Below are positions 25,450 to 60,187 of a DNA stretch of 64,000 nucleotides, piece by piece. The notes under the pieces were generated by a model. That model did not search any database and was not told the origin of the DNA. It saw nothing but the letters and a program-made list of their open reading frames with translations. The DNA lies in assembly GCA_025454955.1 (NCBI GenBank), contig JALONL010000015.1:72230-136229 (forward strand). The letters are read 5' to 3'. The stretch comes from Bacteroidia bacterium (GTDB lineage: Bacteria > Bacteroidota > Bacteroidia > Palsa-965). The translations under genes and the position numbers were made by a program. Numbering within the stretch: position 1 is the stretch's first letter; each line of letters begins with the position of its first letter.

Positions 25450-26364
25450 ATGAATATTGATAAGAGTATCAGAAATAACAAGAAAGCGCTTTTAGCATAT
25501 TTCAGAGACAGAGCCAGCGAGTTTTTAACAGAAGTCAGAAAAAATTTTGCCGATACCCAGGCGGATAAGCGGGCAAGAGCCATAAACGAGAACCTGAATA
25601 AGACTAAGGATAACCTGATAGCCACATTGCTTCAGAAAGCCGAAAAAGAAAAATGGCACAATAAAGAAAAACTGGAAGCCCTTTTATTGATTACTTACTG
25701 CAATATTGTTGTAATGATTGAAAGCCGTAATTCAGTTAGACCGTATGAATATATGGATTTTTCAAGGCGGATTGGCGAACTTTGGGATCCTTTCTGCAAA
25801 TTGTGTTTTAATTATCCGATAAATGATGTGGCATTATTTATTCCCCCGTTATTTTCGGAGGTAAAAAAGAAACTCACAAAAGAGATTACCGAATACATTG
25901 ACAATCTTCCGATCCCTGCTTTAGAAAAAACTGAGTTAAAATCCTACTATGACAAAGTATGGAGTATGGTTACGTCAGGAGAAATTCAGTTAGAACTTGA
26001 TCTGCATTTTACTTTTAGCGGCAATAATTATGTGGTTGATTTCAAAAGCGGGTTCGGCTCTAATGAAAAAGGAAATACAAACCGGTTATTACTTGTGGCC
26101 ACAGTTTACCAAAATCTCGAAGCTAACTACAAATGCCTCTTATTGGTAAGATCAGAAGAAAATAACAGTTATTTCAATACGCTTAAAAATTCGGGAATTT
26201 GGGAAGCATACTGTGGCAACGAGGCTTACCGCAAAATACATGAGTACTCTGGCTATGATCTGAAAAAATGGATCGACTCTAATATTAACTGGGAATATGA
26301 TTTCTCAGCAGAAACAACTCAACATCTAACTCAGAATAACCTGATTGAATATCTTAAATGGTAA
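25450..26364 (+). CDS. Putative type II restriction endonuclease (PD-(D/E)xK-like)
   Basis: AT-rich 304-aa ORF overlapping an m6A MTase gene; ELDLHF...VVDFKSG fits a D...(D/E)xK catalytic pattern. Confidence 0.6.
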   Translation: MNIDKSIRNNKKALLAYFRDRASEFLTEVRKNFADTQADKRARAINENLNKTKDNLIATLLQKAEKEKWHNKEKLEALLLITYCNIVVMIESRNSVRPYEYMDFSRRIGELWDPFCKLCFNYPINDVALFIPPLFSEVKKKLTKEITEYIDNLPIPALEKTELKSYYDKVWSMVTSGEIQLELDLHFTFSGNNYVVDFKSGFGSNEKGNTNRLLLVATVYQNLEANYKCLLLVRSEENNSYFNTLKNSGIWEAYCGNEAYRKIHEYSGYDLKKWIDSNINWEYDFSAETTQHLTQNNLIEYLKW

Positions 26365-27872
26365 TGTTAAGTGAAGCTAAAACATATCAGGCATATTATA
26401 CCAGGTCGGCTCCTATAGTTGACTATATGGTTAATATGCTTTCCCTAAAACCTGCCGACAGGATATTTGAACCTTGCGCAGGCGATGGTGTTTTTGTCGA
26501 TGCCCTGCTTAATCTATATCCGGATTCTGAGATTGATGTTTGTGAACTGAATACTCAGTCGGTTAAGGAACTCTTAACCAAATTTTCTGCTTACCCGAAT
26601 GTTCATATCAGAGAATGTGATACTCTTCTTGATGAAGACCTGAACCTCAATTCTTGTTTTGGAGGTATTTATGATAAAATCATTGCGAACCCACCTTATG
26701 GTGCGTGGCAAGATTATTCGAAAAGAACCGTTCTGAAAAAAATTTATCCCGACTTATACATAAAAGAAAGCTATGCCCTTTTTCTTTACCGAAGCATAGA
26801 ACTATTAAAGGAAGATGGGATATTAAGTTTCATTATTCCCGATACATTTTTGAATCTACATACACACAAAGCACTCAGGGAACACATATTATCGAAAACA
26901 CAAATTATTGAATTGGCACTTTTCCCCTCCTCTTTCTTCCCTGGCGTTAATTTTGGATATGCCAACCTTTCAATAATTACACTCAGGAAAAAGAGCGCCC
27001 CAAACGAGTGCATGAACAATACTTTTCCCGTAATTAAAGGATTTAACAATGTTAATCAACTCTACAATATACACAAACAGGAGTTAAGCATAACCACCTA
27101 CAAACAAGGAGATATTTTTCATAACCCCGATCATGCGTTCTATATTTCAGACAATAACAATCTGCTGTACCTGATTAACCATGCAGAGACAAGAATTGGC
27201 GATATAGCTGAGTGTGTAACCGGGTTTTATTCCGGTGATGATAAGCAGTATTTACGCGTAAGTAGCCCCGATCTTCGCAACGGGAAAAATTATGAAGTTA
27301 TCAGTGCTGATTATATCAATAATGACTATTCAAAAATACCGAACGTTCTAAATGGAATTGAGGGGAAAAAATGTTTCATTCCAATAGTGAAAGGAGGGAA
27401 TGCTAAATATATTAAACCCGAAAACTGGTACATGAACTGGAGCAGCGAAGCTGTATATCATTACAAAACCGACAAAAAAGCAAGATTTCAAAACCCGAGG
27501 TATTATTTCCGTTTCGGGATTGGTGTACCCATGATTAGTTCTTCGAGTATAAGTGCTTCACTGATTGAAAAAAAACTATTTGATCAGAGTATTGTGGGTG
27601 TTTTCCCAAAAGATGAAAGCATTACCTATTATCTTCTGGCTTTCTTCAACTCTCCTACCTGTAACAAACTGATCAGAACAATAAACCCATCGGCAAATAA
27701 CCCTGCAAACTACATAAAGAAAATCCCATTTATCATTCCGGAAAAAAGTATTCTAAATTACATTTCTGAAAAGACAATAGGTATAATTGATTCTATTAAA
27801 ACCAGCAATTCTTATGATGAAAATACTGAATTTGAGATTTGGGAAATAATTAAAAACATCTATAAAATTTAG
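26358..27872 (+). CDS. N6-adenine DNA methyltransferase, gamma class (TaqI/Eco57I-like)
   Basis: Motif I FEPCAGDGVF precedes motif IV IIANPPYG; YALF, LSFIIPDTFL; C-terminal TRD-like region. Confidence 0.9.
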   Translation: MVMLSEAKTYQAYYTRSAPIVDYMVNMLSLKPADRIFEPCAGDGVFVDALLNLYPDSEIDVCELNTQSVKELLTKFSAYPNVHIRECDTLLDEDLNLNSCFGGIYDKIIANPPYGAWQDYSKRTVLKKIYPDLYIKESYALFLYRSIELLKEDGILSFIIPDTFLNLHTHKALREHILSKTQIIELALFPSSFFPGVNFGYANLSIITLRKKSAPNECMNNTFPVIKGFNNVNQLYNIHKQELSITTYKQGDIFHNPDHAFYISDNNNLLYLINHAETRIGDIAECVTGFYSGDDKQYLRVSSPDLRNGKNYEVISADYINNDYSKIPNVLNGIEGKKCFIPIVKGGNAKYIKPENWYMNWSSEAVYHYKTDKKARFQNPRYYFRFGIGVPMISSSSISASLIEKKLFDQSIVGVFPKDESITYYLLAFFNSPTCNKLIRTINPSANNPANYIKKIPFIIPEKSILNYISEKTIGIIDSIKTSNSYDENTEFEIWEIIKNIYKI

Positions 27873-44969: not shown

Positions 44970-46340
44970 ATGAAACGCTTTCTGATTATCAGCGGAATTT
45001 TACTCGTCGTACTCATAGTGGTAGTGATGATTGTAAAAGGCGACGGCAGCAAGGCCATACGCGTGGCTACCGAAAAAGCCTCGCGCCGCAGCATTACCGA
45101 ACTGGTTTCGGCCAGCGGAAAAGTACAGCCCGAACAGGAAGTGAAAATTACTTCCGATGTATCGGGGCAGATTGTGGAACTGCTGGTGAAGGAAGGCGAC
45201 ACTGTGAAGAAAGGCCAGTTGCTGCTGCGCATTAATCCCAACGTATATGAATCGGCCGTGGAGCGGATGCAGGCAATGGTAAACGGTGCCCGCGCCAATC
45301 TGGCCACCAGCCAAGCGCGACTGGCCCAGTCGAAAGCACAATTGGCAAACACCGAACTGGCCTACAACCGCAACAAAAAACTGCACGACCAGAAAGCCAT
45401 TTCGGATGCCGAGTATGAAACCGCCAAAGCCCAGTACGAAAGCGCCAAAGCCGATGTACAGGCCGCAAGCGAAAGCGCCCGCAGTGCCGATTTTAACGTG
45501 AGCAGCAGTGCCGCATCGCTCAAAGAAGCCAACGAAAATTTAACGCGCACCAGCATTTACGCGCCCGTATCGGGCACCATTTCGAAATTGGCCAAACGCA
45601 AAGGCGAAAGCGTGCTGGGCAATGCGCAAATGGCCGGCGAAGTTATTTTAACCATTGCCAACCTGCTGGAAATGGAAGTGCAGGTGGATGTAAACGAAAA
45701 CGACATTCTCCGCGTTCACCTCAACGACACTGCGCTTATAGAAGTGGAAGCGCACGACAATCGCAAGTTCAAAGGCATTGTAACCGAGGTGGCCAACTCA
45801 GCCACTTCCACCGGACTCAACACCGATCAGGTCACCAATTTCTCGGTGAAAGTGCGCATACTGCGCGAGTCGTACAAAGACCTGATGAAAACCGAACGCC
45901 CCAATGAATATCCGTTTCTGCCGGGCATGTCGGCCACGGTGGATATTCAAACGCGCTCGGTGCAAAATGCCATTGCCGTGCCCATCCAATCGGTAACCAC
46001 CCGCACCGACACCGCCGCCAAAACCGGCACCGGCGAAGACTTAGCCAAAGGCAGCGATGCCGGAGGCCCCCCGCCCGCCCTGCAAACCGGCGACAAACGC
46101 GAAGCCAAAACCGAAACACCCGAGCCGATTGAGTGTGTGTTTGTACTACGCGATGGAAAGGTGAAACTGATTGCGGTAAAGACAGGTGTACAGGACAATC
46201 AGTATATTGAAATAGTTTCGGGTTTGAAGGAAGGCGATGAAGTGGTGAGTGCGCCGTTTAGTGCGATACGTACCAAGCTGTACAATGGTGCATCGGTAGA
46301 GAAAGTGTCGAAAGACGATCTGGTGGCGGATACGGAATAA
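44970..46340 (+). CDS. Efflux periplasmic adaptor (HlyD/MacA-like)
   Basis: ASGKVQP..EV.I.S.VSG.I.EL.VKEGD.V.KGQLL; APVSGTI; LPGMSA.V.I; VSGL.EGDEVV. Confidence 0.92.
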   Translation: MKRFLIISGILLVVLIVVVMIVKGDGSKAIRVATEKASRRSITELVSASGKVQPEQEVKITSDVSGQIVELLVKEGDTVKKGQLLLRINPNVYESAVERMQAMVNGARANLATSQARLAQSKAQLANTELAYNRNKKLHDQKAISDAEYETAKAQYESAKADVQAASESARSADFNVSSSAASLKEANENLTRTSIYAPVSGTISKLAKRKGESVLGNAQMAGEVILTIANLLEMEVQVDVNENDILRVHLNDTALIEVEAHDNRKFKGIVTEVANSATSTGLNTDQVTNFSVKVRILRESYKDLMKTERPNEYPFLPGMSATVDIQTRSVQNAIAVPIQSVTTRTDTAAKTGTGEDLAKGSDAGGPPPALQTGDKREAKTETPEPIECVFVLRDGKVKLIAVKTGVQDNQYIEIVSGLKEGDEVVSAPFSAIRTKLYNGASVEKVSKDDLVADTE

Positions 46341-46357
46341 TTTTAACTTAATATGCT

Positions 46358-47632
46358 ATGGAAAAATTAGTGATTACCAAGTTCGGGCAGTTGGAGAATA
46401 TCACGTTTGACGTGAAAGACTTTACTGTGCTTATTGGGCCGCAAGCGAGTGGGAAGAGTACGATAGGAAAACTAGTATATATATTCAAATCAGTATTTCA
46501 AGCATTATCTCTTTATACAGTAAATAGAATTTCTCTGAATGAAGAAATATCATTTAAAGATTTTACCTCATCTAATATTAGACAAAATCTTGACCGCTTA
46601 TTTACTTCTTCCTCATACAGGAAAAACACAAAAATAACATTCTACTATCAGTCAGATTTTTATATCGACATTGAAAATAAAGGAGATATAAATATAGTAA
46701 CGTTTTCCAGTGCTTTTGAGAGCAAATTAGACTCTATTGAAGATAAATACTATGAAATAATTAACTCAACAAAGTTCATTGAAAACTCTAAATCCAAAAA
46801 TAGATTTGAATTTATTGTGGATTTTTTATGGGATTTCATTCCAAGTGAATTTGAATTTAGTAGTAGTAAATATCAAGACGTTTTATATATACCATCAGGA
46901 AGGAGTATAGTATCAGTATCGCCAGACTTAACCCATGATTTTAAAAACATACATAACAATCCAATAATTGATCATTTTATACAGAGAGTGTCGATTTACA
47001 GAAATGAATTTTCTAATAATTTAGAATATTTAGCCAAAAAAAACAATATCAACCTACAAGAAAACCTTATAATCCAAACTGCAATAAATAAAATAAAATC
47101 AATACTTTCTGGAGAATTTAAATATGACAATAATGGCGGTGAAATAACATCGGGAGATGCCAAAGTAATGATCAGTCAGGCATCTTCCGGTCAACAAGAA
47201 TCATTATGGATATTACTATTAATATATATACAATTTATTTACAACAAATCACAGAATTGCTTCTTGATAATTGAAGAACCGGAAGCAAATTTATTCCCAA
47301 AAGCTCAAGTAGAAATTGCGGAATTAATTGCACTACTTGCCAATAATAGCAATACAAAACTATTCATCACAACACACAGTCCGTATGTTTTAGCCAGTTT
47401 TAACAATCTTATTTATGCATATCAAAAAAGCAGGATAGATCCGGTAAAGACCGACAAAATTGTCCCCAAATCACTTTGGCTGAATATTGAGCATGTTTAT
47501 GCCGGTTATCTCGAAAATGGCAAGTTGGAGGACATTATTGACACCGAAATAAATCAGATTAAAAACGAGATGGTGGACACTGCTTCTAGGAAAGTGAATA
47601 ATAGCTATGATCAGTTATTTGATATAGATTAA
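46358..47632 (+). CDS. ABC-type ATPase (AAA_15/AAA_21-like), AT-rich
   Basis: Walker A GPQASGKS, signature-like ASSGQQ, Walker B LIIEEPE, H-loop ITTHSPY; no TM partner. Confidence 0.88.
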   Translation: MEKLVITKFGQLENITFDVKDFTVLIGPQASGKSTIGKLVYIFKSVFQALSLYTVNRISLNEEISFKDFTSSNIRQNLDRLFTSSSYRKNTKITFYYQSDFYIDIENKGDINIVTFSSAFESKLDSIEDKYYEIINSTKFIENSKSKNRFEFIVDFLWDFIPSEFEFSSSKYQDVLYIPSGRSIVSVSPDLTHDFKNIHNNPIIDHFIQRVSIYRNEFSNNLEYLAKKNNINLQENLIIQTAINKIKSILSGEFKYDNNGGEITSGDAKVMISQASSGQQESLWILLLIYIQFIYNKSQNCFLIIEEPEANLFPKAQVEIAELIALLANNSNTKLFITTHSPYVLASFNNLIYAYQKSRIDPVKTDKIVPKSLWLNIEHVYAGYLENGKLEDIIDTEINQIKNEMVDTASRKVNNSYDQLFDID

Positions 47633-47642
47633 ATATATATAT

Positions 47643-48110
47643 ATGGCACCTAAACAGACAGATTGTTTTTTATTTGGAAAAGATTGGGTTGACGTAAAAA
47701 ACAGCCAGAATATTTCATTAAAAGAAAAAAAAGAAAGTTCCATCTATCAAATAAAGAATCCTGATCTTATCGATCTTTATATATACAAGGTAGATGGCGG
47801 AATAAGTAAGTCAAAAAATGAAAAATGTGACTATCTTATACTGAAATGTACTACAGAAAAGCCTGATGCTTATTTTATTGAACTAAAGGGAAATGATTTA
47901 TTGAAAGCCGTTGACCAGATTACCGCTACTATTGATAATTACAAGAATGATCTGAAAGAACACAGGATTTATGCCCGGATAGTGGTTAGTAGAGTCATAT
48001 CTACACACATTTATGATAGCCGTTATAAAAAACTGAATGTCAAGATAAAGGAGCTTCGTGGTGATCTGAAAACACAAAGCCAGAAAATGATTGAAACAAT
48101 CCGCGCATAA
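47643..48110 (+). CDS. Small PD-(D/E)xK-like putative nuclease, AT-rich
   Basis: 155 aa with KCDYL...YFIELKG...AVDQI pattern; 10 bp downstream of the ATPase. Confidence 0.6.
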   Translation: MAPKQTDCFLFGKDWVDVKNSQNISLKEKKESSIYQIKNPDLIDLYIYKVDGGISKSKNEKCDYLILKCTTEKPDAYFIELKGNDLLKAVDQITATIDNYKNDLKEHRIYARIVVSRVISTHIYDSRYKKLNVKIKELRGDLKTQSQKMIETIRA

Positions 48111-48115
48111 ACAAT

Positions 48116-48808: not shown

Positions 48809-48843
48809 GTTTGTTTGGAATACCTGACGTAACTTATTCCAGC

Positions 48844-48958
48844 CGGGATTGCAGCGGAAACCCGGCAGCAGTAAAACAGCAGTGCCCAACTCTTCGAGGT
48901 TTTCGGAAACCTCGAAGAGTTGGGGTTTATTATTTTTTCTGCTGCCGCGTTGCAGCGG
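48844..48958. repeat. REP-like nested-palindrome element, family B copy 1
   Basis: Inner 40-bp palindrome 48885-48924 (CCCAACTCTTCGAGGTTTTC/GGAAACCTCGAAGAGTTGGG) within outer IR GGCAGCAG..AAAA/TTTT..CTGCTGCC. Confidence 0.85.
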
Positions 48959-49023
48959 AAAGCACGTACAGGTGATTGTGAATTGCCGCTAAAGGTTCGC
49001 TCCAAAAAATTTTTTCTCCCCGT

Positions 49024-49105: not shown

Positions 49106-49654
49106 TTGAATCTGGAGGAGCTTTATCATCAGTATAAAAACATGGTGTATAACCTGGCGCTCCACTATGTGCAAAACGTGGAGGACGCAGAGGAAATTAC
49201 ACAGGATGTTTTTCTGGCCGTGCATCAGTCGATAGACGGGTTTGAGCAGCGCGCGGCGGTGAGTACGTGGATGTACCGGATTACGATAAACAAATCGCTT
49301 GACTTTATTCGCAGCCGCAAGCGCAAGAAACGGTTTGCGTTTATTACCTCGCTGTTTGGCGAAGACGGTCGCGAAAACGTGCAGATATACTCGAATTTTA
49401 ACCACCCGGGCGCGGCACTCGAACAGAAAGAGGCCATGCAACGCATTTTTGCCTGCATCAATTCGTTGCCCGACAGCCAGAAAACGGCGTTGATACTGAT
49501 GAAAATAGAAGGCCGCAGCCAGCAGGAAACCGCCGAAATTATGAATACCACGGCAAAGGCCGTTGAATCGCTGGTGCAGCGGGCCAAGGTGAGTCTGGTA
49601 AAAAAATTAGAGGCGGCCGAAGGAAATGCTAACGGAAGTCGTTTAACCCAATAA
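49106..49654 (+). CDS. ECF RNA polymerase sigma-70 factor
   Basis: TTG start; DAEEITQDVF, TWMYRITINKSLD (region 2), LPDSQKTA..L...EG.S..ETAEIM (region 4). Confidence 0.93.
   Translation: MNLEELYHQYKNMVYNLALHYVQNVEDAEEITQDVFLAVHQSIDGFEQRAAVSTWMYRITINKSLDFIRSRKRKKRFAFITSLFGEDGRENVQIYSNFNHPGAALEQKEAMQRIFACINSLPDSQKTALILMKIEGRSQQETAEIMNTTAKAVESLVQRAKVSLVKKLEAAEGNANGSRLTQ
49618..49644 (+). promoter_or_regulatory. Putative ECF promoter P2 (inside the 3' end of the sigma gene)
   Basis: CGAAGG-N15-TCGTTT, 21 bp before ATG 49666. Confidence 0.7.
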
Positions 49655-49665
49655 TTGATACCGCA

Positions 49666-49911
49666 ATGAAAACCGACCTTGAACTTTTAAGTACTCTGCA
49701 GCGTGCCGAAGTATCGCCGTTTTTGTGGACACGCATACAGGCCCGCATACAGGCCGGTGCGGTGGCCAGGGTAAAACCTGCGCTGGCCTGGGCCGCGCTG
49801 GGTGCTGCAATGGTGGTGCTGGCGGTAAACATTGCTTTTGTGGCGGTGCAGCCTGCGCAAAACGAAAGTGCAGGAATGCCCTCTACGCTCAATAACCTGT
49901 ACAATGAATAA
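49666..49911 (+). CDS. Small single-TM protein, probable anti-sigma factor
   Basis: 81 aa directly after the ECF sigma; EVSPFLWTRIQARI cytoplasmic segment, one TM helix, LNNLYNE tail. Confidence 0.65.
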   Translation: MKTDLELLSTLQRAEVSPFLWTRIQARIQAGAVARVKPALAWAALGAAMVVLAVNIAFVAVQPAQNESAGMPSTLNNLYNE

Positions 49912-50368
49912 AAGCAAACTCTTCGTCGCACTCATTGTACTGCTGCTGCTGGCCAACGTGGTGCTGCTGGTGTTTGCCTTTGGCGACCGCCCCGGGTCCC
50001 GCGAACGACGTGGCGCACTGAGAGAGCGGATAATTAATCAACTGCATTTTGACCAGGCACAGGCCGACAAATACGAACTGCTGATACACGAACACCGCAG
50101 TACGGTAGATGCCAAAAGCGACGAAATTTCGCAACTGCGCCGGCAAATGTATGCCGCTCTCAAAACCGGCGACAGTGCCGCAAACGACTCGCTACGCCAC
50201 GAAATTGGCAAACTGCAGATTGAAACAGAACTGGTGCATTACAACCATTTCAAAGGCATACGCGCCCTGTGCCGCCCCGATCAGTTACCGGCCTTCGACA
50301 CCATGCTGCCCGAATTAGCCAAAGCATTCAGCCATCAGAAACCTCCGCGACCGCCGCAAGGCCACTAA
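49904..50368 (+). CDS. Spy/CpxP-like (periplasmic heavy-metal sensor) helical protein
   Basis: N-terminal anchor LLLLANV, helical body, HF..IRALC.P.Q...F motif; start at MNKSKL. Confidence 0.7.
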   Translation: MNKSKLFVALIVLLLLANVVLLVFAFGDRPGSRERRGALRERIINQLHFDQAQADKYELLIHEHRSTVDAKSDEISQLRRQMYAALKTGDSAANDSLRHEIGKLQIETELVHYNHFKGIRALCRPDQLPAFDTMLPELAKAFSHQKPPRPPQGH

Positions 50369-50370
50369 CC

Positions 50371-51054
50371 ATGAAAACGTTTTACCTGCTGCTGCTTTGT
50401 ATTTGCTGCCGCGTGGCCGTTACAGCCCACACGGTGCAGGTAAATTTTACGCCGGTGTTTGGCTCACAGATACTGAAGCCAGGACAAACCCATTACCACA
50501 CTTCCACTGCCGACAGCATACGCATTGAGGTTTGCCGCTTCTACATTTCGCACATAAAGTTTATGCACGATAAAAATGTGGTGTTTGATGCCGCCGCACA
50601 GGTGTATCTCATAGACATGGCCGATACGGTTTCGCAGCAACTGCAATTTACTTTGCCCGATGGCGTAAACTGGAATGCCATTTCGTTTTGCCTCGGCACC
50701 GACAGTGCGACCAATGTATCGGGCGCGCTGGGCGGAAGCCTCGACCCGGCAAACGGCATGTACTGGGCCTGGCAGAGCGGCTACATAAATTTTAAACTCG
50801 AAGGCAGTTCGCCGCGATGCACCGCGCGCAAGCATGAATTTCAGTTTCACTTAGGCGGATATGCCAGCCCGTTTGCCACTTTGCAGCAGATTCGTTTGGA
50901 TTGTGTACAAAGCAGCAACATAAATGTGGTGTGCGATACCGCAAAGTTTTTCGATTACACAGATGTAAAAACCACCGCAGCCATAATGTCGCCGGGAGCG
51001 CGGGCGGTGGAATTGTCGGTTGCGGCGGCGGGGTTGTTTGCAGTGAAGCCATGA
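50371..51054 (+). CDS. MbnP-like protein
   Basis: Signal peptide; FYISHI, LG.DS..N.SG...G.LDP.NGMYWAWQSGYINFKLEG with WxW motif (50764-50772); FHLGGY. Confidence 0.8.
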   Translation: MKTFYLLLLCICCRVAVTAHTVQVNFTPVFGSQILKPGQTHYHTSTADSIRIEVCRFYISHIKFMHDKNVVFDAAAQVYLIDMADTVSQQLQFTLPDGVNWNAISFCLGTDSATNVSGALGGSLDPANGMYWAWQSGYINFKLEGSSPRCTARKHEFQFHLGGYASPFATLQQIRLDCVQSSNINVVCDTAKFFDYTDVKTTAAIMSPGARAVELSVAAAGLFAVKP

Positions 51055-52103
51055 GGAAAAGCACACTCATACTCGGCCTGCTTGGCGTGGTGATACTGGC
51101 TTTCAGAAGCTGGAATCCGGGGCCGGCAACGCCTGCGCATTTTCCGAAGCCGGTGTATGATTTTGCACGCAATCCGCTGCGCAGCGAAACCGTGCAGCTT
51201 GGCCGTGCGCTGTTTTACGATCCGCTGCTGTCGGTAAACAACGGTATTTCCTGCGCCTCGTGCCACTCGCAGTACAACGGCTTTGCACATGCCGACCATG
51301 CCCTGAGCCACGGCATTTTCGATTCAATAGGCACACGCAATGCTCCGGCGCTGATGAACCTTGCCTGGCAGAAGAGTTTTATGTGGGATGGTGCCGTTAA
51401 CCACCTCGATGTGCAGGCACTGGCACCCATTACACACCCCAAAGAAATGGGCGAAACGCTGAACGGTGTAATTAAAAAACTCAATGCCTCGGTCATTTAT
51501 CCTTCGCTGTTTTACAATGCCTTTGGCGACTCTGCCATTACCGGTCAGCGTGTGTTGCTGGCTCTTTCGCAGTTTCAGCTTACGCTCATTTCAGCCAATG
51601 CAAAGTACGACAGTGTGAAAGCAGGCAAAGCCGTTTTTACACCTCAGCAGCAACGCGGCTATGCCCTGTTTAAAACGCACTGCAACACCTGCCACCGCGA
51701 ACCGATGTTTACCACAGGCGCATTCAGCAGCAACGGTTTACCGGTAGATACTACGCTGAACGATTACGGCCGCGGTGCCATTACACACCGCAGCGCCGAC
51801 TCGCTGCTGTTTAAAATTCCCACCCTGCGCAATATTGAGTTTACCTACCCTTACATGCACGACGGGCGTTTCACACGGCTTTCGCAGGTACTCAATCATT
51901 ACACCTCGGGCATTGTGCCGCATAAAAACCTGCCAGCCGAACTTCAAAAACCCATCTCACTCAGCCCCGAAGAAAAGGTAGATCTCACCGCATTCCTGCT
52001 CACACTCACCGATAAAAAATTCCTTTACAATCCCGCCTATTCCTATCCGAAAGAAATTTTTTCGCGAGGCCGAAGGAATCCGGCTTCACTCTCGTCTCAG
52101 TAA
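51051..52103 (+). CDS. Di-haem cytochrome c peroxidase, MbnH/MauG-like
   Basis: Two CxxCH motifs (CASCH, CNTCH), LGRALFYDP.LS, RNAPAL.NLAW, FKIPTLRNI, PYMHDGRF; start at MRKSTL (51051). Confidence 0.9.
   Translation: MRKSTLILGLLGVVILAFRSWNPGPATPAHFPKPVYDFARNPLRSETVQLGRALFYDPLLSVNNGISCASCHSQYNGFAHADHALSHGIFDSIGTRNAPALMNLAWQKSFMWDGAVNHLDVQALAPITHPKEMGETLNGVIKKLNASVIYPSLFYNAFGDSAITGQRVLLALSQFQLTLISANAKYDSVKAGKAVFTPQQQRGYALFKTHCNTCHREPMFTTGAFSSNGLPVDTTLNDYGRGAITHRSADSLLFKIPTLRNIEFTYPYMHDGRFTRLSQVLNHYTSGIVPHKNLPAELQKPISLSPEEKVDLTAFLLTLTDKKFLYNPAYSYPKEIFSRGRRNPASLSSQ
52071..52097 (+). promoter_or_regulatory. Putative ECF promoter P3 (inside the 3' end of the peroxidase gene)
   Basis: CGAAGG-N15-TCGTCT, 22 bp before ATG 52120. 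Confidence 0.7.
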
Positions 52104-52119
52104 ATAAATCCAAACCCGA

Positions 52120-53472
52120 ATGACACGCTACACTCCTCTACTCGCTTTGCTGCTTGCGCCGTTTGCGGCCAATGCACAGGGCCCGGCCATTACAAGCTGG
52201 CTGCAGAACACCACCATTACCGGCCAGTATTACGTGCAAAGTAATCCTACGCCCATTAACAACAACATTGTGGCCAATGTGCAAACCGTACAATATTCCA
52301 CCAGTTGGGTATATGTAAGCACACACGGTATTCCCACATACATCACCGGCCCTTACCTCGACGGAAATCCGTCCATTGCCAGCGACCAGAACGCCATTTT
52401 CCGTTTCCCGCTCAGTCCGCAGCCCAACACCGGCACACCCACCAGCACTGTGCCTGCCAACATTGGCGTATTCATAAACGGTGTGGCGTTGTTTGATTAT
52501 CGCGATGGTGTTTCGTGGCGCAATGCATCGGGCACCGAGCAGGGCGGCCCCATTCCCGGCCCTCCCGGCGATGGCGTATGGAACCGCGATGCCATTGTGG
52601 CCGAACTCACGGGATTCGACTGTGCAAAAGGTCACCCGGCTATGGGCAATTATCACCATCACCAAAACCCTTCGGCGTTTGATCTCGACCTGAATGTAAT
52701 TTCCACCATCTGCTCTACGTATGATGCCGACGGACTTTACATTATAGACAGCACCGTACACTCGCCCCTGCTGGGTTTTGCCTACGACGGTTATCCGATT
52801 TACGGTGCATACGGCTACCTGAACACCAACGGCACCGGCGGCATTGTGCGCATGAAATCGAGCTATCAGTTGCGCAACATTACCGTGCGCACACACTACG
52901 CCGACGGAAGCGATGTAACCGATGGCCCGCCCGTGAGCACCACCTATCCGCTTGGCCGCTACCGCGAAGATTACGAATACATTGCCCACCCCAACGATCC
53001 TGATTACTTAGACGAGCACAACGGCCGCTTCTGCATCACCCCCGAATATCCGAATGGTACGTATGCTTACTTCTGCACGGTGGATGCCGGCTGGAACTCG
53101 GCCTATCCGTATGTGATTGGGCCTACATTTTACGGCATTGTATCGGCCTCGGAAGTAACCAGCATTAACGAGCCTACAACGGTGTACAATGCGCCTTCGG
53201 GAATGAGTGAGCAGGATTTCGGGCAATTGCGTTTTTCGCTTTACCCAAACCCTTCTTCCGAATTTGTAATGGTGCAGGCCGGTAATATGGTTACTGATAA
53301 TCTATCGGTAAAGGTGTTTGATGCTTCGGGACGAATGATTCAGCAAACACAGATTTACCAGGGAAGTACATTGGCCTATATTGATACGCGAACCATGTAC
53401 GACGGAATTTATTTTGCCGAAATTTCAAACGGCGATCACAAGGAAGTGCTGAAGTTTGTGGTAGCGCATTAA
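52120..53472 (+). CDS. YHYH-domain protein with T9SS type A C-terminal domain
   Basis: IGVFINGV, GHP..GNYHHHQ (YHHH variant), HSPLLGFAYDGYPIYG, LDEHNGR, YAYF; CTD LYPNP...GIYF.EI. Confidence 0.85.
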   Translation: MTRYTPLLALLLAPFAANAQGPAITSWLQNTTITGQYYVQSNPTPINNNIVANVQTVQYSTSWVYVSTHGIPTYITGPYLDGNPSIASDQNAIFRFPLSPQPNTGTPTSTVPANIGVFINGVALFDYRDGVSWRNASGTEQGGPIPGPPGDGVWNRDAIVAELTGFDCAKGHPAMGNYHHHQNPSAFDLDLNVISTICSTYDADGLYIIDSTVHSPLLGFAYDGYPIYGAYGYLNTNGTGGIVRMKSSYQLRNITVRTHYADGSDVTDGPPVSTTYPLGRYREDYEYIAHPNDPDYLDEHNGRFCITPEYPNGTYAYFCTVDAGWNSAYPYVIGPTFYGIVSASEVTSINEPTTVYNAPSGMSEQDFGQLRFSLYPNPSSEFVMVQAGNMVTDNLSVKVFDASGRMIQQTQIYQGSTLAYIDTRTMYDGIYFAEISNGDHKEVLKFVVAH

Positions 53473-53610
53473 CCTATATTACATCCCCCCGGAATATCCA
53501 GCTGCATCTGAATGGTGTGGCCGGATTTTTTATTTGGTGATTGATGTGTGTGAAAAGTAGTTTGTAAACTGGAAACGGGGGGATTGAATACCAGGCGAAG
53601 TTTATAATAG

Positions 53611-53632
53611 CCCCGACAAAAAAATGTCGGGG
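53611..53632 (+). terminator. Short hairpin after the cassette
   Basis: CCCCGACA-aaaaaa-TGTCGGGG. Confidence 0.5.
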
Positions 53633-53637
53633 CAGGC

Positions 53638-53754
53638 TGGGATTGCAGCGGAAACCCGGCAGCAGCAAAAACAGCAGGGTGCCCAACTTTCCGAGGTTTC
53701 CGGAAACCTCGGAGAGTTGGGGTTTATTATTTTTTGCTGCTGCCGGGTTGCAGC
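53638..53754. repeat. REP-like nested-palindrome element, family B copy 2
   Basis: Same orientation as 48844-48958; outer 19-bp perfect IR 53653-53671/53731-53749, inner 40-bp palindrome 53682-53721. Confidence 0.85.
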
Positions 53755-53832
53755 CAACGCTTCGCGTCCGATTTTTTACGCTTCGCGTATTTGCAGATTG
53801 AAAGAAAGAAATCCACAGCCCATTTTTGCAGC

Positions 53833-54246
53833 ATGATATTCAGCTCAAACACCCAGCTCATGTGCGGAATACTGCTGATAACAGTTCCCACCATAGCCTA
53901 CGGCGGAAGTTTTTTGCTTCGTGTGCTTTCTGGGTCGATAGCCATGCCGTTTACGGCTTTTCAGAAATCCATGTTCAGGGCCGGACATGCGCACGCGGGT
54001 GTGCTGGTGCTGCTGGCCTTAATTGTGCAGCCGCTTATTGAAGCTGTGGGCTATCCGTTGTTTACCGAATGGTTGCTGCGCGCTTCTTTTGGCGCAGCGG
54101 CGATGCTGGTGAGCGGGGGATTTTTTGCCGCCGCCGGACATAAAAACGCCGAAAAGCCCAACAAATGGATTATGCTGGTGTGGATTGGCGCGGTGCTGCT
54201 TTCGGTGGCGCTGTTCATACTTGGACTTGGATTAATACTCAATTAA
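53833..54246 (+). CDS. Four-TM membrane protein
   Basis: FRAGHAHAGVLV motif and four hydrophobic helices; start at MIFSSN. Confidence 0.7.
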   Translation: MIFSSNTQLMCGILLITVPTIAYGGSFLLRVLSGSIAMPFTAFQKSMFRAGHAHAGVLVLLALIVQPLIEAVGYPLFTEWLLRASFGAAAMLVSGGFFAAAGHKNAEKPNKWIMLVWIGAVLLSVALFILGLGLILN

Positions 54247-54274: not shown

Positions 54275-56335
54275 ATGAAATACCTGCACTACTTCCTGTT
54301 TCTCTTTTTGGCGCTGCCTGCAATTTCGGCGGCCCAAACACCTTCGCAAACCGTGCGCGGAAAGGTGGTTGACAATCAAACAAAATCGGTACTGCCCGGT
54401 GTGGTGGTAATTCTTGGCGACAGCGGCGCGGCACTGCGCACCACGGCCACCGATGCTTCGGGCAATTTCCGTTTCGAAACGGTTGAAGTGGGCCGCCGAC
54501 TGCTGCGGTTTAAACTGCTCGGCTACCGCGAACGTGCCATGAACATTGTGGTGAGCGCCGGAAAAGAAGTAGTGTTAACGATAGAACTCGAAGAATCGGT
54601 AGTGCAGGCGAAAGAAGTGGTGATTACTGCACAGGACCAGAAAGGCAAGCCGAATAACGAAATGGCCACCGTGAGTTCGCGCTCGTTTTCTATTGAAGAA
54701 ACACAGCGTTTTGCAGGAAGTCTGGGCGACCCGTCGCGCATGGCTGCCAACTACGCAGGCGTGAGCGGCGCACAGGATTCGCGCAATGATGTGGTGGTGC
54801 GCGGAAATTCGCCGTTAGGTGTGCTGTGGCGTTTAAACGGACTTGATATTCCAAACCCCAACCACTTTGGTTCGTTTGGAAGCACCGGCGGCCCGGTAAG
54901 TATTTTAAACAACAACGTGCTCGACAATTCCGATTTCATGTCGGGCGCTTTCCCGGCCGAATACGGTAATGCCACGGCCGCCGCTTTTGATCTGAAACTG
55001 CGCAACGGAAACAACGAGAAGTTTGAGTTTCTGGGCCAGGTGGCGTTTAACGGATTTGAAGGCGGTATTGAAGGGCCATTGAGCAAAAAGCACAATGCTT
55101 CGTTTCTGGTCAACTACCGCTATTCCACACTCGGACTTTTCAATCAGCTTGGAATAAACTTTGGCACCGGAACAGCCGTGCCGAAATATCAGGATCTTTC
55201 GTTTAAACTTAATTTCCCTACCGAAATGCTGGGCACATTTTCGGTATGGGGCATTGGCGGACTGAGCTACATTGAACTGCTCGACAGCAAACGCGATACC
55301 ACACAGCTTGATCTTTACACCATTGGCGGATTTGATACGTATTACGAAACGCGCATGGGTGTGGGCGGGTTTACACACATTATTTCATTCGGCGATCGCA
55401 GCTACGGACGGTTGAATATTGGCATGACCACGCAGCAAAATTTCGTGCGCCTCGATTCGGTTTCATTTTCCGACAATACATTCTGGCCCAGCTACGGCAG
55501 TAAATTCACTCAAACACGCATTACCGGAAATTACACCGTAGTTACCAAATTCAACTCGCGCAATACCCTGAAATCTGGAGTATATGCCGATCTGCTCAAC
55601 TTCCTGCTGCTCGACAGCACCAACATTACACCCACCACATTCCGCCGCCTGCGCGATACCGACGACGGCACCGAACTGCTTCAGGCATACACACAATGGC
55701 AGCATAAATTTACCGACCTGCTTACACTCAACACCGGCATTCATTACCAGCAACTGCTGCTCAACAATTCGGTAAGTATTGAGCCGCGTGTAGGTTTGCG
55801 CTGGCAGTACGACGAGAAAAACGCATTTAGCTTTGGTTCCGGCCTTCACAGCCAGATGCAGACCATTTTCACCTACTTCAACCAAACCTATCTGCCCGAC
55901 GGCTCGTACCTGCGCACCAACGAAGAACTTGGTTTTACACGCAGCATTCACGCCGTGCTGGCCTGGGATCGCACGCTGGGCAAAAACGCCCGCTTGAAAG
56001 TGGAAACCTACTACCAGCATTTGTACGATGTGCCCGGATTAGAACGCGTGTCGATATACTCCGGCCTGAATGAAGGTGCCGATTTCAATTCGCCCAACAC
56101 CGACAGTCTGGTAAACAACGGCACCGGCCGCAACTACGGAATAGAACTTACTGCCGAGCGTTTTTACAATAAGGGCTGGTATTTCCTCACCACAGTATCG
56201 TTGTTCGAATCGAAGTACACCAGCTTTGGCAGCAGCGAACGCAACACGGCATTCAACGGCAACTATGTGGTGAATGTGCTGGGCGGCAAGGAAATAAAAT
56301 TCGGCCCCAAAGATAGTAACTTATCCACTTTGTAG
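54275..56335 (+). pseudogene. TonB-dependent receptor, 3'-truncated
   Basis: Normal N-domain and plug (DPSRMAANYAGV, VVRGNSPLGVLWRL) but the barrel stops at NVLGGKEIKFGPK followed by DSNLSTL*; no terminal aromatic strand; composition drops abruptly at about 56310. Confidence 0.75.
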
Positions 56336-59062: not shown

Positions 59063-60187
59063 CTACCGCACCAGAAGTAATTTACTCTGATGTAATACTT
59101 CACCTTCTTTGCGAATAACAGCCATATAAATACCGGCAGTTAATTCGTTCAGGGCATAATTCCCAGAATCATTACCCGATCTAAACACAGTTCGCCCACG
59201 CATATCGTACAACACCAGTTCAGCACCTGTTGGGAAACTAACTATTTGCAAGGGGTGCCCGATTTGCAACACCGTAGGTATGAAATAAGGCTTCGGGATT
59301 ACTGTAACCGTAACAGAATCAACTTGTGAGCAACCGAGCGTATCGCTAACCGTAACGGTATAGGTTGTAGAGGTTTCTGGCTTCACAAACGGATTAGAGC
59401 AGTTAATACAACTAAGGCCAGCGGAAGGCTGCCAGTAATACGTAATGCCACCTGTGGCCTGTAACTGCGTACTGTCGCCCTGAGTAATACTAACATCTAC
59501 TCCAGCATTGGGTTCTGGAACAGCCGTTATTGAAATCATGTCCACCCAATAGTAGGCGTACGGTTGATTTGGTGAAGTTGCAGTATAAACCTGTGTCGTT
59601 TGCGCATTCGTCCACATATTACCCAGCACCAGAAACTGTTCTCCTCCCTGCGCGATGAATGAGCCTTCGATCTTCACCCAGTTGACGGTGTCGAATATCA
59701 CACTATCACAGGCGAAGGTGGGCGTTTTGCCAACAAAGTCGGCAGGGTTATAAGAGTATTCGATAGCACTGTCTGCAAAAAGGTAAATACTAATTCCGTT
59801 TGAAGCATAATCGGTGCGTTCAGGTTTGGAAACGTAGTAGCTGATGCAATACTTCCTACCCGCTACGAGCGGTTGCAGGAGTTTTGCGAGGAGCATCTCA
59901 CGTAAAATAGGATTTACATAAGTGGCAAATCCCACAAAGCCGAACCCATGAAATGGAACTTGGCTACCTATAACGTTATTGGTTGTAGGTGGACAAAGCC
60001 CCGGCATATAGACATCGCTAAAATAATCTGAGGAGTAAAGGGACTTCCATCCAATCGCCGGAAAATCCGGGTCAGGAGGATAACAGCAAACCGTATCCTC
60101 AAACGACGGATTAGGCACAAGATTGACCTGTGCGATGCCATATAGGTTCGCTGCAAAGATTATCAACATGAGCAATAGTTTTTTCAT
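59063..60187 (-). CDS. Secreted protein: CBM-like domain (NLVPNPSFE), Ig-like module, T9SS CTD
   Basis: Signal peptide; L..PL.AG.KYCISY; W.PSAGLSC..CSNP...P..STTYTVTV; YDMRGR...AGIY. Confidence 0.8.
   Translation of the reverse strand: MKKLLLMLIIFAANLYGIAQVNLVPNPSFEDTVCCYPPDPDFPAIGWKSLYSSDYFSDVYMPGLCPPTTNNVIGSQVPFHGFGFVGFATYVNPILREMLLAKLLQPLVAGRKYCISYYVSKPERTDYASNGISIYLFADSAIEYSYNPADFVGKTPTFACDSVIFDTVNWVKIEGSFIAQGGEQFLVLGNMWTNAQTTQVYTATSPNQPYAYYWVDMISITAVPEPNAGVDVSITQGDSTQLQATGGITYYWQPSAGLSCINCSNPFVKPETSTTYTVTVSDTLGCSQVDSVTVTVIPKPYFIPTVLQIGHPLQIVSFPTGAELVLYDMRGRTVFRSGNDSGNYALNELTAGIYMAVIRKEGEVLHQSKLLLVR

Follow-up and report, generated by a model that had tools for sequence, protein, structure and literature searches.

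Conserved linkage of MbnP, MbnH and a secreted YHYH protein in Bacteroidota points to an envelope-signal-controlled operon probably concerned with copper

A stretch of 64,000 nucleotides (nt) from contig JALONL010000015.1 of a Bacteroidia bacterium (assembly GCA_025454955.1), referred to here as the window, carries six co-directional open reading frames (ORFs) that are closely packed on the + strand between positions 49106 and 53472. They encode an extracytoplasmic function (ECF) sigma factor, a putative anti-sigma factor, a Spy-like protein, an MbnP-like protein, an MbnH-like di-haem enzyme and a YHYH-domain protein with a C-terminal domain (CTD) of the type IX secretion system (T9SS). The triad MbnP–MbnH–YHYH is a conserved module across orders of Bacteroidota, and the six genes are probably a modular, conserved metal operon of this phylum that is controlled by an envelope signal, the metal being copper. 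That the genes form one functional module is held with high confidence. The features are listed below, with protein lengths in amino acids (aa).

49106..49654, + strand: ECF-type sigma-70 factor, 182 aa, TTG start; Sigma70_r2 and Sigma70_r4_2
49666..49911, + strand: putative anti-sigma factor, a small single-pass membrane protein, 81 aa; named from its position after the sigma gene
49904..50368, + strand: Spy/CpxP/LTXXQ-like periplasmic protein, membrane-anchored, 154 aa; PF13801 (Metal_resist) near the cut-off
50371..51054, + strand: MbnP-like periplasmic protein, 227 aa; PF20243
51051..52103, + strand: MbnH/MauG-like di-haem enzyme, 350 aa; CCP_MauG
52120..53472, + strand: YHYH protein with T9SS type A C-terminal domain, 450 aa; PF14240 and PF18962
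53501..53529, + strand: terminator-like hairpin (53501–53521) and T-run, just 3' of the YHYH stop

The linkage was examined from both of its ends. A survey anchored on YHYH, in which one genome per GTDB species was searched with an alignment as the query, returned 80 loci, all of them from metagenome-assembled genomes (MAGs) and spanning Flavobacteriales, Chitinophagales, Sphingobacteriales, Saprospiraceae, Crocinitomicaceae and unclassified Bacteroidia. Relatives of the YHYH protein number thousands, the best 120 all being about 450 aa long, with YHYH and T9SS domains and 63–87% identity; across orders the identity is 58–87%. At most loci, tblastn with the window proteins found both partners upstream of YHYH and on its strand, MbnP at a distance of about 1.7 kb and MbnH at about 1.05 kb, and in 54 of the 57 positive YHYH-anchored loci the MbnP–MbnH pair lies immediately upstream on that strand. 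When only species-level loci with at least 4.5 kb on each side were counted, and both genes were required within 6 kb, MbnP and MbnH were found near YHYH in 34 of 43. A second survey, anchored on MbnP, scanned metagenomes with an alignment of these MbnPs and gave 80 further loci. A YHYH orthologue follows MbnH in 29 of the 30 that have enough flank, and the thirtieth (L137 in our numbering of loci), at one stage taken as a negative, proved to contain a divergent YHYH paralogue. The initial annotation of this stretch had made its proposal depend on YHYH genes co-occurring with MbnP and MbnH in other genomes, and such co-occurrence was found in both surveys.

Clustering of the neighbouring ORFs in 126 loci recovered MbnH in 108, MbnP in 100, the Spy-like protein in 49, the sigma factor in 38 and the anti-sigma factor in 29, and no other partner in more than seven; MbnP is paired with MbnH in 100 of the 108 MbnH-carrying loci. 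It is clear that the arrangement lies far beyond chance, since dozens of independent genomes repeat this gene order. The front end is more variable. A sigma orthologue is located upstream of MbnP in 17 of the 34 triad loci with full flanks, so that roughly half of the triads come with the sigma/anti-sigma/Spy trio and MbnP–MbnH–YHYH stands without a sigma gene in about half. Sigma–Spy–YHYH is found without MbnP and MbnH at locus L057 and on a plasmid of Chondrinema litorale, and the cultured Nemorincola caseinilytica has sigma, anti-sigma, Spy, MbnP and MbnH with no adjoining YHYH. The three sub-modules thus occur in every pairwise combination, which is the pattern expected of parts of a single pathway.

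Within the window, the anti-sigma stop and the Spy start overlap by 8 nt, the mbnP stop and the mbnH ATG by 4 nt (ATGA), and the remaining intergenic gaps are 2–16 nt. A single transcription unit would be the simplest reading of the six genes. The hairpin behind the YHYH stop has an 8-bp stem with four GC pairs and is followed by CGGATTTTTT; it is a consensus match only, the regional count of such sites being not above that of shuffled sequence, and it probably marks the end of the transcription unit. The initial annotation had reported from this region a WxW-containing (YWAW) MbnP-like protein, a di-haem MauG-like peroxidase with two CxxCH motifs and PYMHDG, a Spy-like protein, and a YHHH variant of YHYH fused to a T9SS CTD, and every feature that it named was recovered in its place by hidden Markov model (HMM) and motif checks. 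Its further statement that a Cu-ATPase is missing agrees with the absence of a P-type ATPase among the window ORFs of at least 586 aa. Methanobactin genes were seen neither flanking the operon nor in the 126 related loci, although no exhaustive search for MbnA, MbnB and MbnC was made and the window was not fully scanned for them.

The MbnP-like protein matches PF20243 with E = 1.1e-41 and 143.3 bits (cut-off 27) over profile positions 3–188 of 189, and some of its relatives carry the NCBI name 'MbnP family protein'. The WxW motif is formed by W132-A-W134 (nt 50764–50772) within GMYWAWQ, so that YWAW spans residues 131–134. W132, W134 and H160 (nt 50848–50850) are invariant in 49 orthologues, and M130 is near-invariant, being kept in at least 90% of them. 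In solved MbnP the copper ligands are a His, a Met, water and the kynurenine into which the leading Trp of WxW is converted (PMC11951088). The residue types of W132, H160 and M130 fit these ligand types, the positional match being unproven as no alignment was obtained; kynurenine formation and copper binding by the window protein may be proposed by extrapolation. In the public gene call this protein (50371–51054) is given as 163 aa from an internal Met, 72% of the 227-aa form, and the latter, which includes a signal peptide, is supported by all relatives.

The MbnH-like enzyme matches CCP_MauG with E = 1.7e-50. Its top NCBIfam model is TIGR04039, 'MbnH family di-heme enzyme' (206.7, under the cut-off of 362.85), and the model of the MauG that serves tryptophan tryptophylquinone (TTQ) scores 192.9. 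The haem-binding motifs C68ASCH72 (nt 51252–51266) and C211NTCH215 (nt 51681–51695) are accompanied by P267YMHDG272; both CxxCH motifs, the inter-haem W112 and Tyr284 are invariant among 62 orthologues. The protein aligns end to end with MbnH of Methylosinus trichosporium OB3b (6E1C, E = 3.6e-36), and this alignment takes in the C-terminal region and motif that ordinary peroxidases lack. Tyr284 (nt 51900–51902) has a Tyr as its counterpart in 6E1C; in the bacterial cytochrome c peroxidase (bCcP) 3O5C the aligned residue is the Met axial ligand. Judged by these alignments, the enzyme is of the MauG/MbnH type and not a plain peroxidase, because Tyr284 replaces the Met ligand of bCcPs as it does in OB3b MbnH. 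A second MauG-like di-haem gene, besides the upstream MbnH, is found directly 3' of YHYH at L004 (11341–12513) and L034; L004 has, besides, a CotH-LTD-T9SS protein encoded between MbnH and YHYH.

The constant partner of this pair, the YHYH protein, matches PF14240 with E = 6.8e-56 and 189.7 bits (cut-off 25), its version of the motif being Y178-H-H-H181. The T9SS CTD at residues 374–448 (nt 53239–53463) is recognised by PF18962 (E = 6.6e-13, 49.2, cut-off 27) and by TIGR04183 (42.4, cut-off 23), and additional T9SS cargo is encoded within the window. The hydrophobic N-terminus is a predicted signal peptide, and the invariant Gln20 is the predicted mature N-terminus. At 50% identity, its family falls into about 2,175 clusters. 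Among 50 diverse multidomain members, H172, H179, H181, H214, D223, D284 and D298 (window numbering) are invariant; the invariant aromatic residues of YHYH include W154 and several Tyr, among them Y178, Y228, Y315 and Y317 (full-protein numbering). The fusion partners are extracellular, namely T9SS CTD, FG-GAP, SprB, Ig, dockerin and cadherin domains, and a sulfatase is fused to YHYH in 3 of the 50. AlphaFold2, supplied with a diverse alignment of 51 sequences, gave a mainly beta model with a predicted local distance difference test (pLDDT) score of 93.2 and a predicted template modelling (pTM) score of 0.92; an input of 13 close orthologues gave a pLDDT of 36.7. Searched with Foldseek against the PDB, the model found no match at E <= 0.001, the top TM-score being 0.10, and against a viral library it found YHYH proteins only, those of giant viruses and those among the structural and baseplate proteins of cyanophages. 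To judge from these sequence features and from its gene neighbours, YHYH is an extracytoplasmic protein with a predicted metal site that is repeatedly tied to envelope signalling and metal-handling partners. Its metal context in Bacteroidota, read from the same genes, is copper, and it is solely the neighbouring genes that suggest a copper role for YHYH itself.

The sigma factor contains regions 2 and 4 only (Sigma70_r2, E = 1.2e-18; Sigma70_r4_2, E = 5.9e-13), and its score of 94.6 against TIGR02937, cut-off 42.9, places it in the ECF superfamily. The 81-aa protein has a single hydrophobic helix, ALAWAALGAAMVVLAVNIAFVAV, no family in the Pfam scan and a weak NCBIfam anti-sigma match (E = 5.9e-05, far under the cut-off). 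It is presumably the anti-sigma factor, because its gene directly follows the sigma gene. The Spy-like protein scores 29.0 bits against PF13801 (Metal_resist), cut-off 29.2; a profile of 18 orthologues matches Escherichia coli Spy (3OEO, E = 0.0026), and the Chondrinema counterpart matches LTXXQ (E = 0.0018). It contains two LxxxQ-type repeats and, unlike Spy, retains an N-terminal membrane helix; in the orthologue alignment His64 is invariant, and His115 and Cys123 are near-invariant. The Spy-like helical protein of the initial annotation is membrane-anchored and has an invariant His, and in this it resembles a sensing component for the sigma and anti-sigma factors more closely than a free chaperone. 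Homology to CnrX was considered and rejected, as the orthologue profile gave weak Spy matches and no CnrX.

CnrH–CnrY–CnrX of Cupriavidus is an ECF metal-sensing module. The window trio is similar to it in combining an ECF sigma factor, a tiny single-pass anti-sigma factor and a membrane-anchored helical, His-bearing periplasmic protein, with metal-handling genes adjoining; it differs in gene order and in having no detected sequence similarity to CnrX, so that the likeness is one of analogy. Control of the operon by its sigma factor is plausible, although the trio occurs at only about half of the loci and no shared promoter motif was found.

Further partners appear at some loci. A multicopper oxidase with its own T9SS CTD is encoded between MbnH and YHYH at L043, L105, L109 and L137, and in the same operon at L032. 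From its sequence and position it is an undoubted copper enzyme of the same operon, with the same predicted export route as YHYH. At L137 the order is sigma, Spy, MbnP, MbnH, multicopper oxidase (T9SS), TlpA-like thioredoxin, divergent YHYH (T9SS) and HupE_UreJ_2. TlpA/AhpC-like thioredoxins are found in six loci, T9SS Cys-type sulfatases in five, arylsulfotransferase-like proteins in six, and CotH (T9SS) in some. At four loci where YHYH stands without MbnP and MbnH (L022, L038, L049 and L068), it lies in a setting of glucan utilisation, its conserved neighbours being a GH3 glycosidase, a protein with CBM30, a protein of 276 aa that belongs to no family, and a giant one of about 1,400–1,580 aa with many CBM48/CBM20/X25 starch- or glycogen-binding repeats. 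The giant protein also gives a match to the motif 'Cu-binding_MopE'.

YHYH is found in comparable settings outside this group of loci. In Bacteroidota, genes for YHYH paralogues precede one for a HupE_UreJ_2 membrane protein. A second YHYH orthogroup, with members of about 320 aa that are equally well conserved (L165, L167, L168, L169 and L170), occurs on a Deinococcus plasmid, in Hydrogenophaga sp. PAMC20947 and in three MAGs labelled Pseudomonadota or Deinococcota. In all five of its loci examined, a YHYH–HupE_UreJ_2 pair lies beside a two-component system, and in two of the five a sulfatase adjoins the pair. These pairs share with the window system the YHYH domain with its invariant His/Asp set and the coupling of YHYH to envelope signalling and to a metal-permease-like membrane protein; they differ in having neither MbnP–MbnH nor a T9SS domain and in the replacement of the ECF sigma factor by the two-component system. 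We know of no characterisation of them. In the long HupE_UreJ_2 forms of this orthogroup the predicted mature N-terminus is conserved as HLMVAQ(K/R)GT, with His first, and this N-terminal His could bind metal.

Pairs of MbnP and MbnH outside methanobactin operons were reportedly described by Manesis in 2021, and the copper chemistry of the pair, which PMC11951088 summarises, is said to have been shown in the same year. With the OB3b proteins (7L6G and 6E1C) the window operon shares adjacent genes for a WxW periplasmic protein and a MauG-like di-haem enzyme. It differs in that both window proteins score under the NCBIfam equivalog cut-offs, that loci of the window type have no conserved MbnT-type TonB transporter and no methanobactin machinery that was seen (no exhaustive search having been made), and that their constant third partner is YHYH with a T9SS CTD. 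The initial annotation had proposed a methanobactin-independent, undescribed system. The first half of this claim is not new, as pairs 'far beyond' the methanobactin producers have been on record since 2013 (PMC3621798); for the linkage to YHYH no description was found in the searchable literature, although the neighbourhood figures of two key papers on MbnP and MbnH may list YHYH. That literature also yielded no mention of the sigma/anti-sigma/LTXXQ front end or of the YHYH–HupE_UreJ_2 pairing in other phyla. MopE/CorA of Methylococcus and Methylomicrobium, which with their di-haem partners (MCA2590/CorB) provide a kynurenine copper site for copper acquisition (PMC3621798; PMC11951088), are likewise surface-exposed or secreted metal-binding proteins encoded beside a MauG-like di-haem enzyme, and share with the window system the logic of a periplasmic maturase and an exported metal protein. 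YHYH differs from them in being unrelated in sequence, in having no fold match in the PDB, in its predicted T9SS export and in the presence of a separate periplasmic MbnP besides.

Beyond the genes, their motifs and their linkage, a mechanism can be proposed for what the module does chemically, which metal it handles, which way that metal moves and how the genes are regulated. The small membrane anti-sigma factor would hold the ECF sigma factor, with the His-bearing Spy/LTXXQ-like protein acting as periplasmic sensor, as the architecture suggests; a periplasmic signal, most likely metal or envelope stress, would free the sigma factor and switch the operon on. By homology to MbnP and MbnH of M. 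trichosporium, the MbnH-like di-haem enzyme would be brought to a high-valent state by peroxide and would oxidise W132 of MbnP, the leading Trp of WxW, to kynurenine, which together with H160 and M130 would create a periplasmic Cu(I) site. The YHYH protein would be exported by Sec and would fold in the periplasm, because the T9SS moves folded cargo; gene linkage suggests that it would there receive its metal, most likely copper, from MbnP, or alternatively exchange metal with it, and at loci with a T9SS multicopper oxidase this enzyme too would be served by MbnP. The T9SS would then carry YHYH by way of its CTD to the cell surface or the medium, where it would work as a metalloenzyme or a metal-capturing protein with its invariant site of four His and three Asp. 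We consider the odds that this chain holds in all its steps to be even. A bolder version is offered tentatively and appears the less probable: YHYH would be a new class of secreted copper-dependent protein of unsolved fold, and MbnP/MbnH a dedicated periplasmic pathway of metallation or cofactor maturation for T9SS cargo, T9SS multicopper oxidases included, that is loaded before export.

Several observations weigh against a copper operon organised in this way. The MbnP-like protein scores 46.3 against the equivalog TIGR04052 (MbnP_like_WxW), under its cut-off of 140, and searches of the PDB with the single sequence and with a 49-sequence profile recovered no MbnP chain even at E <= 10; by these comparisons the window MbnP is a distant subfamily, remote from characterised MbnP. 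The copper link of this subfamily would be drawn from homology and gene context. Neighbour clustering of the 126 loci revealed no conserved transporter in the module, and when the regions in front of 35 sigma genes and of 53 mbnP genes lacking a sigma gene were searched, no dyad motif that could be a shared ECF promoter rose above shuffled controls. Furthermore, about one fifth of the YHYH orthologue loci have no MbnP and MbnH within 6 kb and are adjoined instead by GH3/CBM glucan genes or CotH. Finally, Iyer et al. predicted in 2021 that YHYH is a Zn-dependent hydrolase with a His-triad/Asp site and noted its fusions to phage tail proteins (PMC7824862), this being the sole functional statement on YHYH/PF14240 found in the literature; a His/Asp site alone does not indicate copper.

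Taken further, that prediction leads to a reading in which YHYH is an extracellular hydrolase, dependent on Zn or in any case not on copper, whose substrate would be a glycan, a sulfated compound or a cell-wall polymer, and is linked to MbnP and MbnH through sigma co-regulation only. Besides the prediction and its phage tail fusions, this reading is favoured by the viral fold matches, which are phage structural and baseplate proteins, by the GH3, CBM30 and giant CBM48/CBM20 neighbours of YHYH at loci without MbnP and MbnH, and by the sulfatase links (the 3/50 fusions, the T9SS sulfatases of five loci and the two loci in other phyla). It appears unlikely, as the linkage in 29/30 and 34/43 loci, with order and spacing kept where the sigma gene is absent, is stronger than co-regulation predicts, and the recurrent multicopper oxidase, HupE_UreJ_2 and TlpA-like partners point to metal handling.

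A reversal of direction, with the operon serving detoxification under copper stress, is similarly improbable. The trio would then sense excess metal, MbnP would sequester Cu(I), the multicopper oxidase, where present, would oxidise Cu(I), and YHYH would be a surface sink or a protective enzyme. Multicopper oxidases such as CueO and PcoA are the classic partners in copper resistance of Proteobacteria, and their presence in the operon at some loci would suit this reading, as would the resemblance of the Spy-like protein to the 'heavy-metal resistance' family PF13801 and the want of a conserved importer in the clustered module. The conserved module has no efflux pump or Cu-ATPase either, however, and the very high conservation of YHYH (58–87% across orders) suggests an enzyme and not a passive sink; moreover, MbnP/MbnH and MopE/CorA are tied to copper acquisition and are copper-repressed in methanotrophs (PMC3621798). 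Least probable is that YHYH is also a substrate of MbnH and has an oxidised aromatic cofactor installed before export, with MbnP possibly an adaptor, as in MauG and methylamine dehydrogenase: the near-obligate order of MbnH then YHYH, the second MauG-like gene at two loci, the invariant W154, Y228, Y315 and Y317 and the fact that MauG-family enzymes act on separate folded proteins (PMC11951088) would agree with it, but MbnP with an intact WxW, the known type of substrate, is always there, and YHYH of other phyla and of the Chondrinema plasmid has no MauG-like neighbour, so that the domain does not generally depend on one.

The DNA around the operon shows several features of its own. A repeat of about 125 bp occurs in two copies in direct orientation on either side of the six genes (48838–48960 and 53632–53760), each with a near-perfect hairpin of 18-bp stem followed by a T-run; the window has no further copies, and the two intergenic segments concerned do not align to the closest relative, L002. 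It may be an element like miniature inverted-repeat transposable elements (MITE) or repetitive extragenic palindromes (REP), or a shared terminator. Downstream, a small membrane protein (53833–54246) was considered as HupE/UreJ-like and rejected, as it does not match an HMM of six such proteins and belongs to no Pfam family. This protein and the following gene like that of a TonB-dependent receptor were excluded from the system, because they co-occur with the operon in its closest relatives only. The latter (CarboxypepD_reg/TonB-dependent-receptor-like, 54275–56335) is 686 aa long, whereas close relatives have 788 aa. Inside it, at 56315, synteny with L002 ends; in the region that runs on to about position 60000 the guanine-cytosine (GC) content falls to about 0.36, and small minus-strand ORFs of no known family replace the histidine kinase and LytTR regulator of the relatives. 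The gene looks 3'-truncated by insertion or replacement. Upstream, a 1.8-kb low-GC (0.345) insertion at 46340–48114, between a membrane-fusion-protein gene and tsaB, contains genes for a 424-aa AAA_15/AriA-like ATPase (PADLOC AriA, E = 4.8e-33) and for a protein of 155 aa that belongs to no family; it is missing from L002, where the flanking genes abut, and could be a mobile defence cassette. At 26358–27872, in another low-GC stretch (0.367 at 26–28 kb), a protein with an Eco57I-type N6-DNA-methylase domain possibly marks a restriction-modification island.

The operon joins two open questions, namely the role of the widespread MbnP and MbnH outside methanobactin producers and the function of the YHYH domain, which ranges over bacteria, cyanophage baseplates, giant viruses and diatoms and has no fold relative among solved structures. 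Their near-obligate linkage offers a concrete, testable hypothesis for the MbnP/MbnH pair and the 'enigmatic' YHYH alike, and raises the question of how T9SS cargo acquires metal before export in the folded state. Systems of this kind are common in Bacteroidota of freshwater, soil and wastewater. If the pair does act as a metallation pathway, it would have a physiological role outside methanotrophs, and YHYH would gain its first function; if copper is involved, the system may matter for copper cycling or for the oxidative breakdown of polymers by these Bacteroidota.

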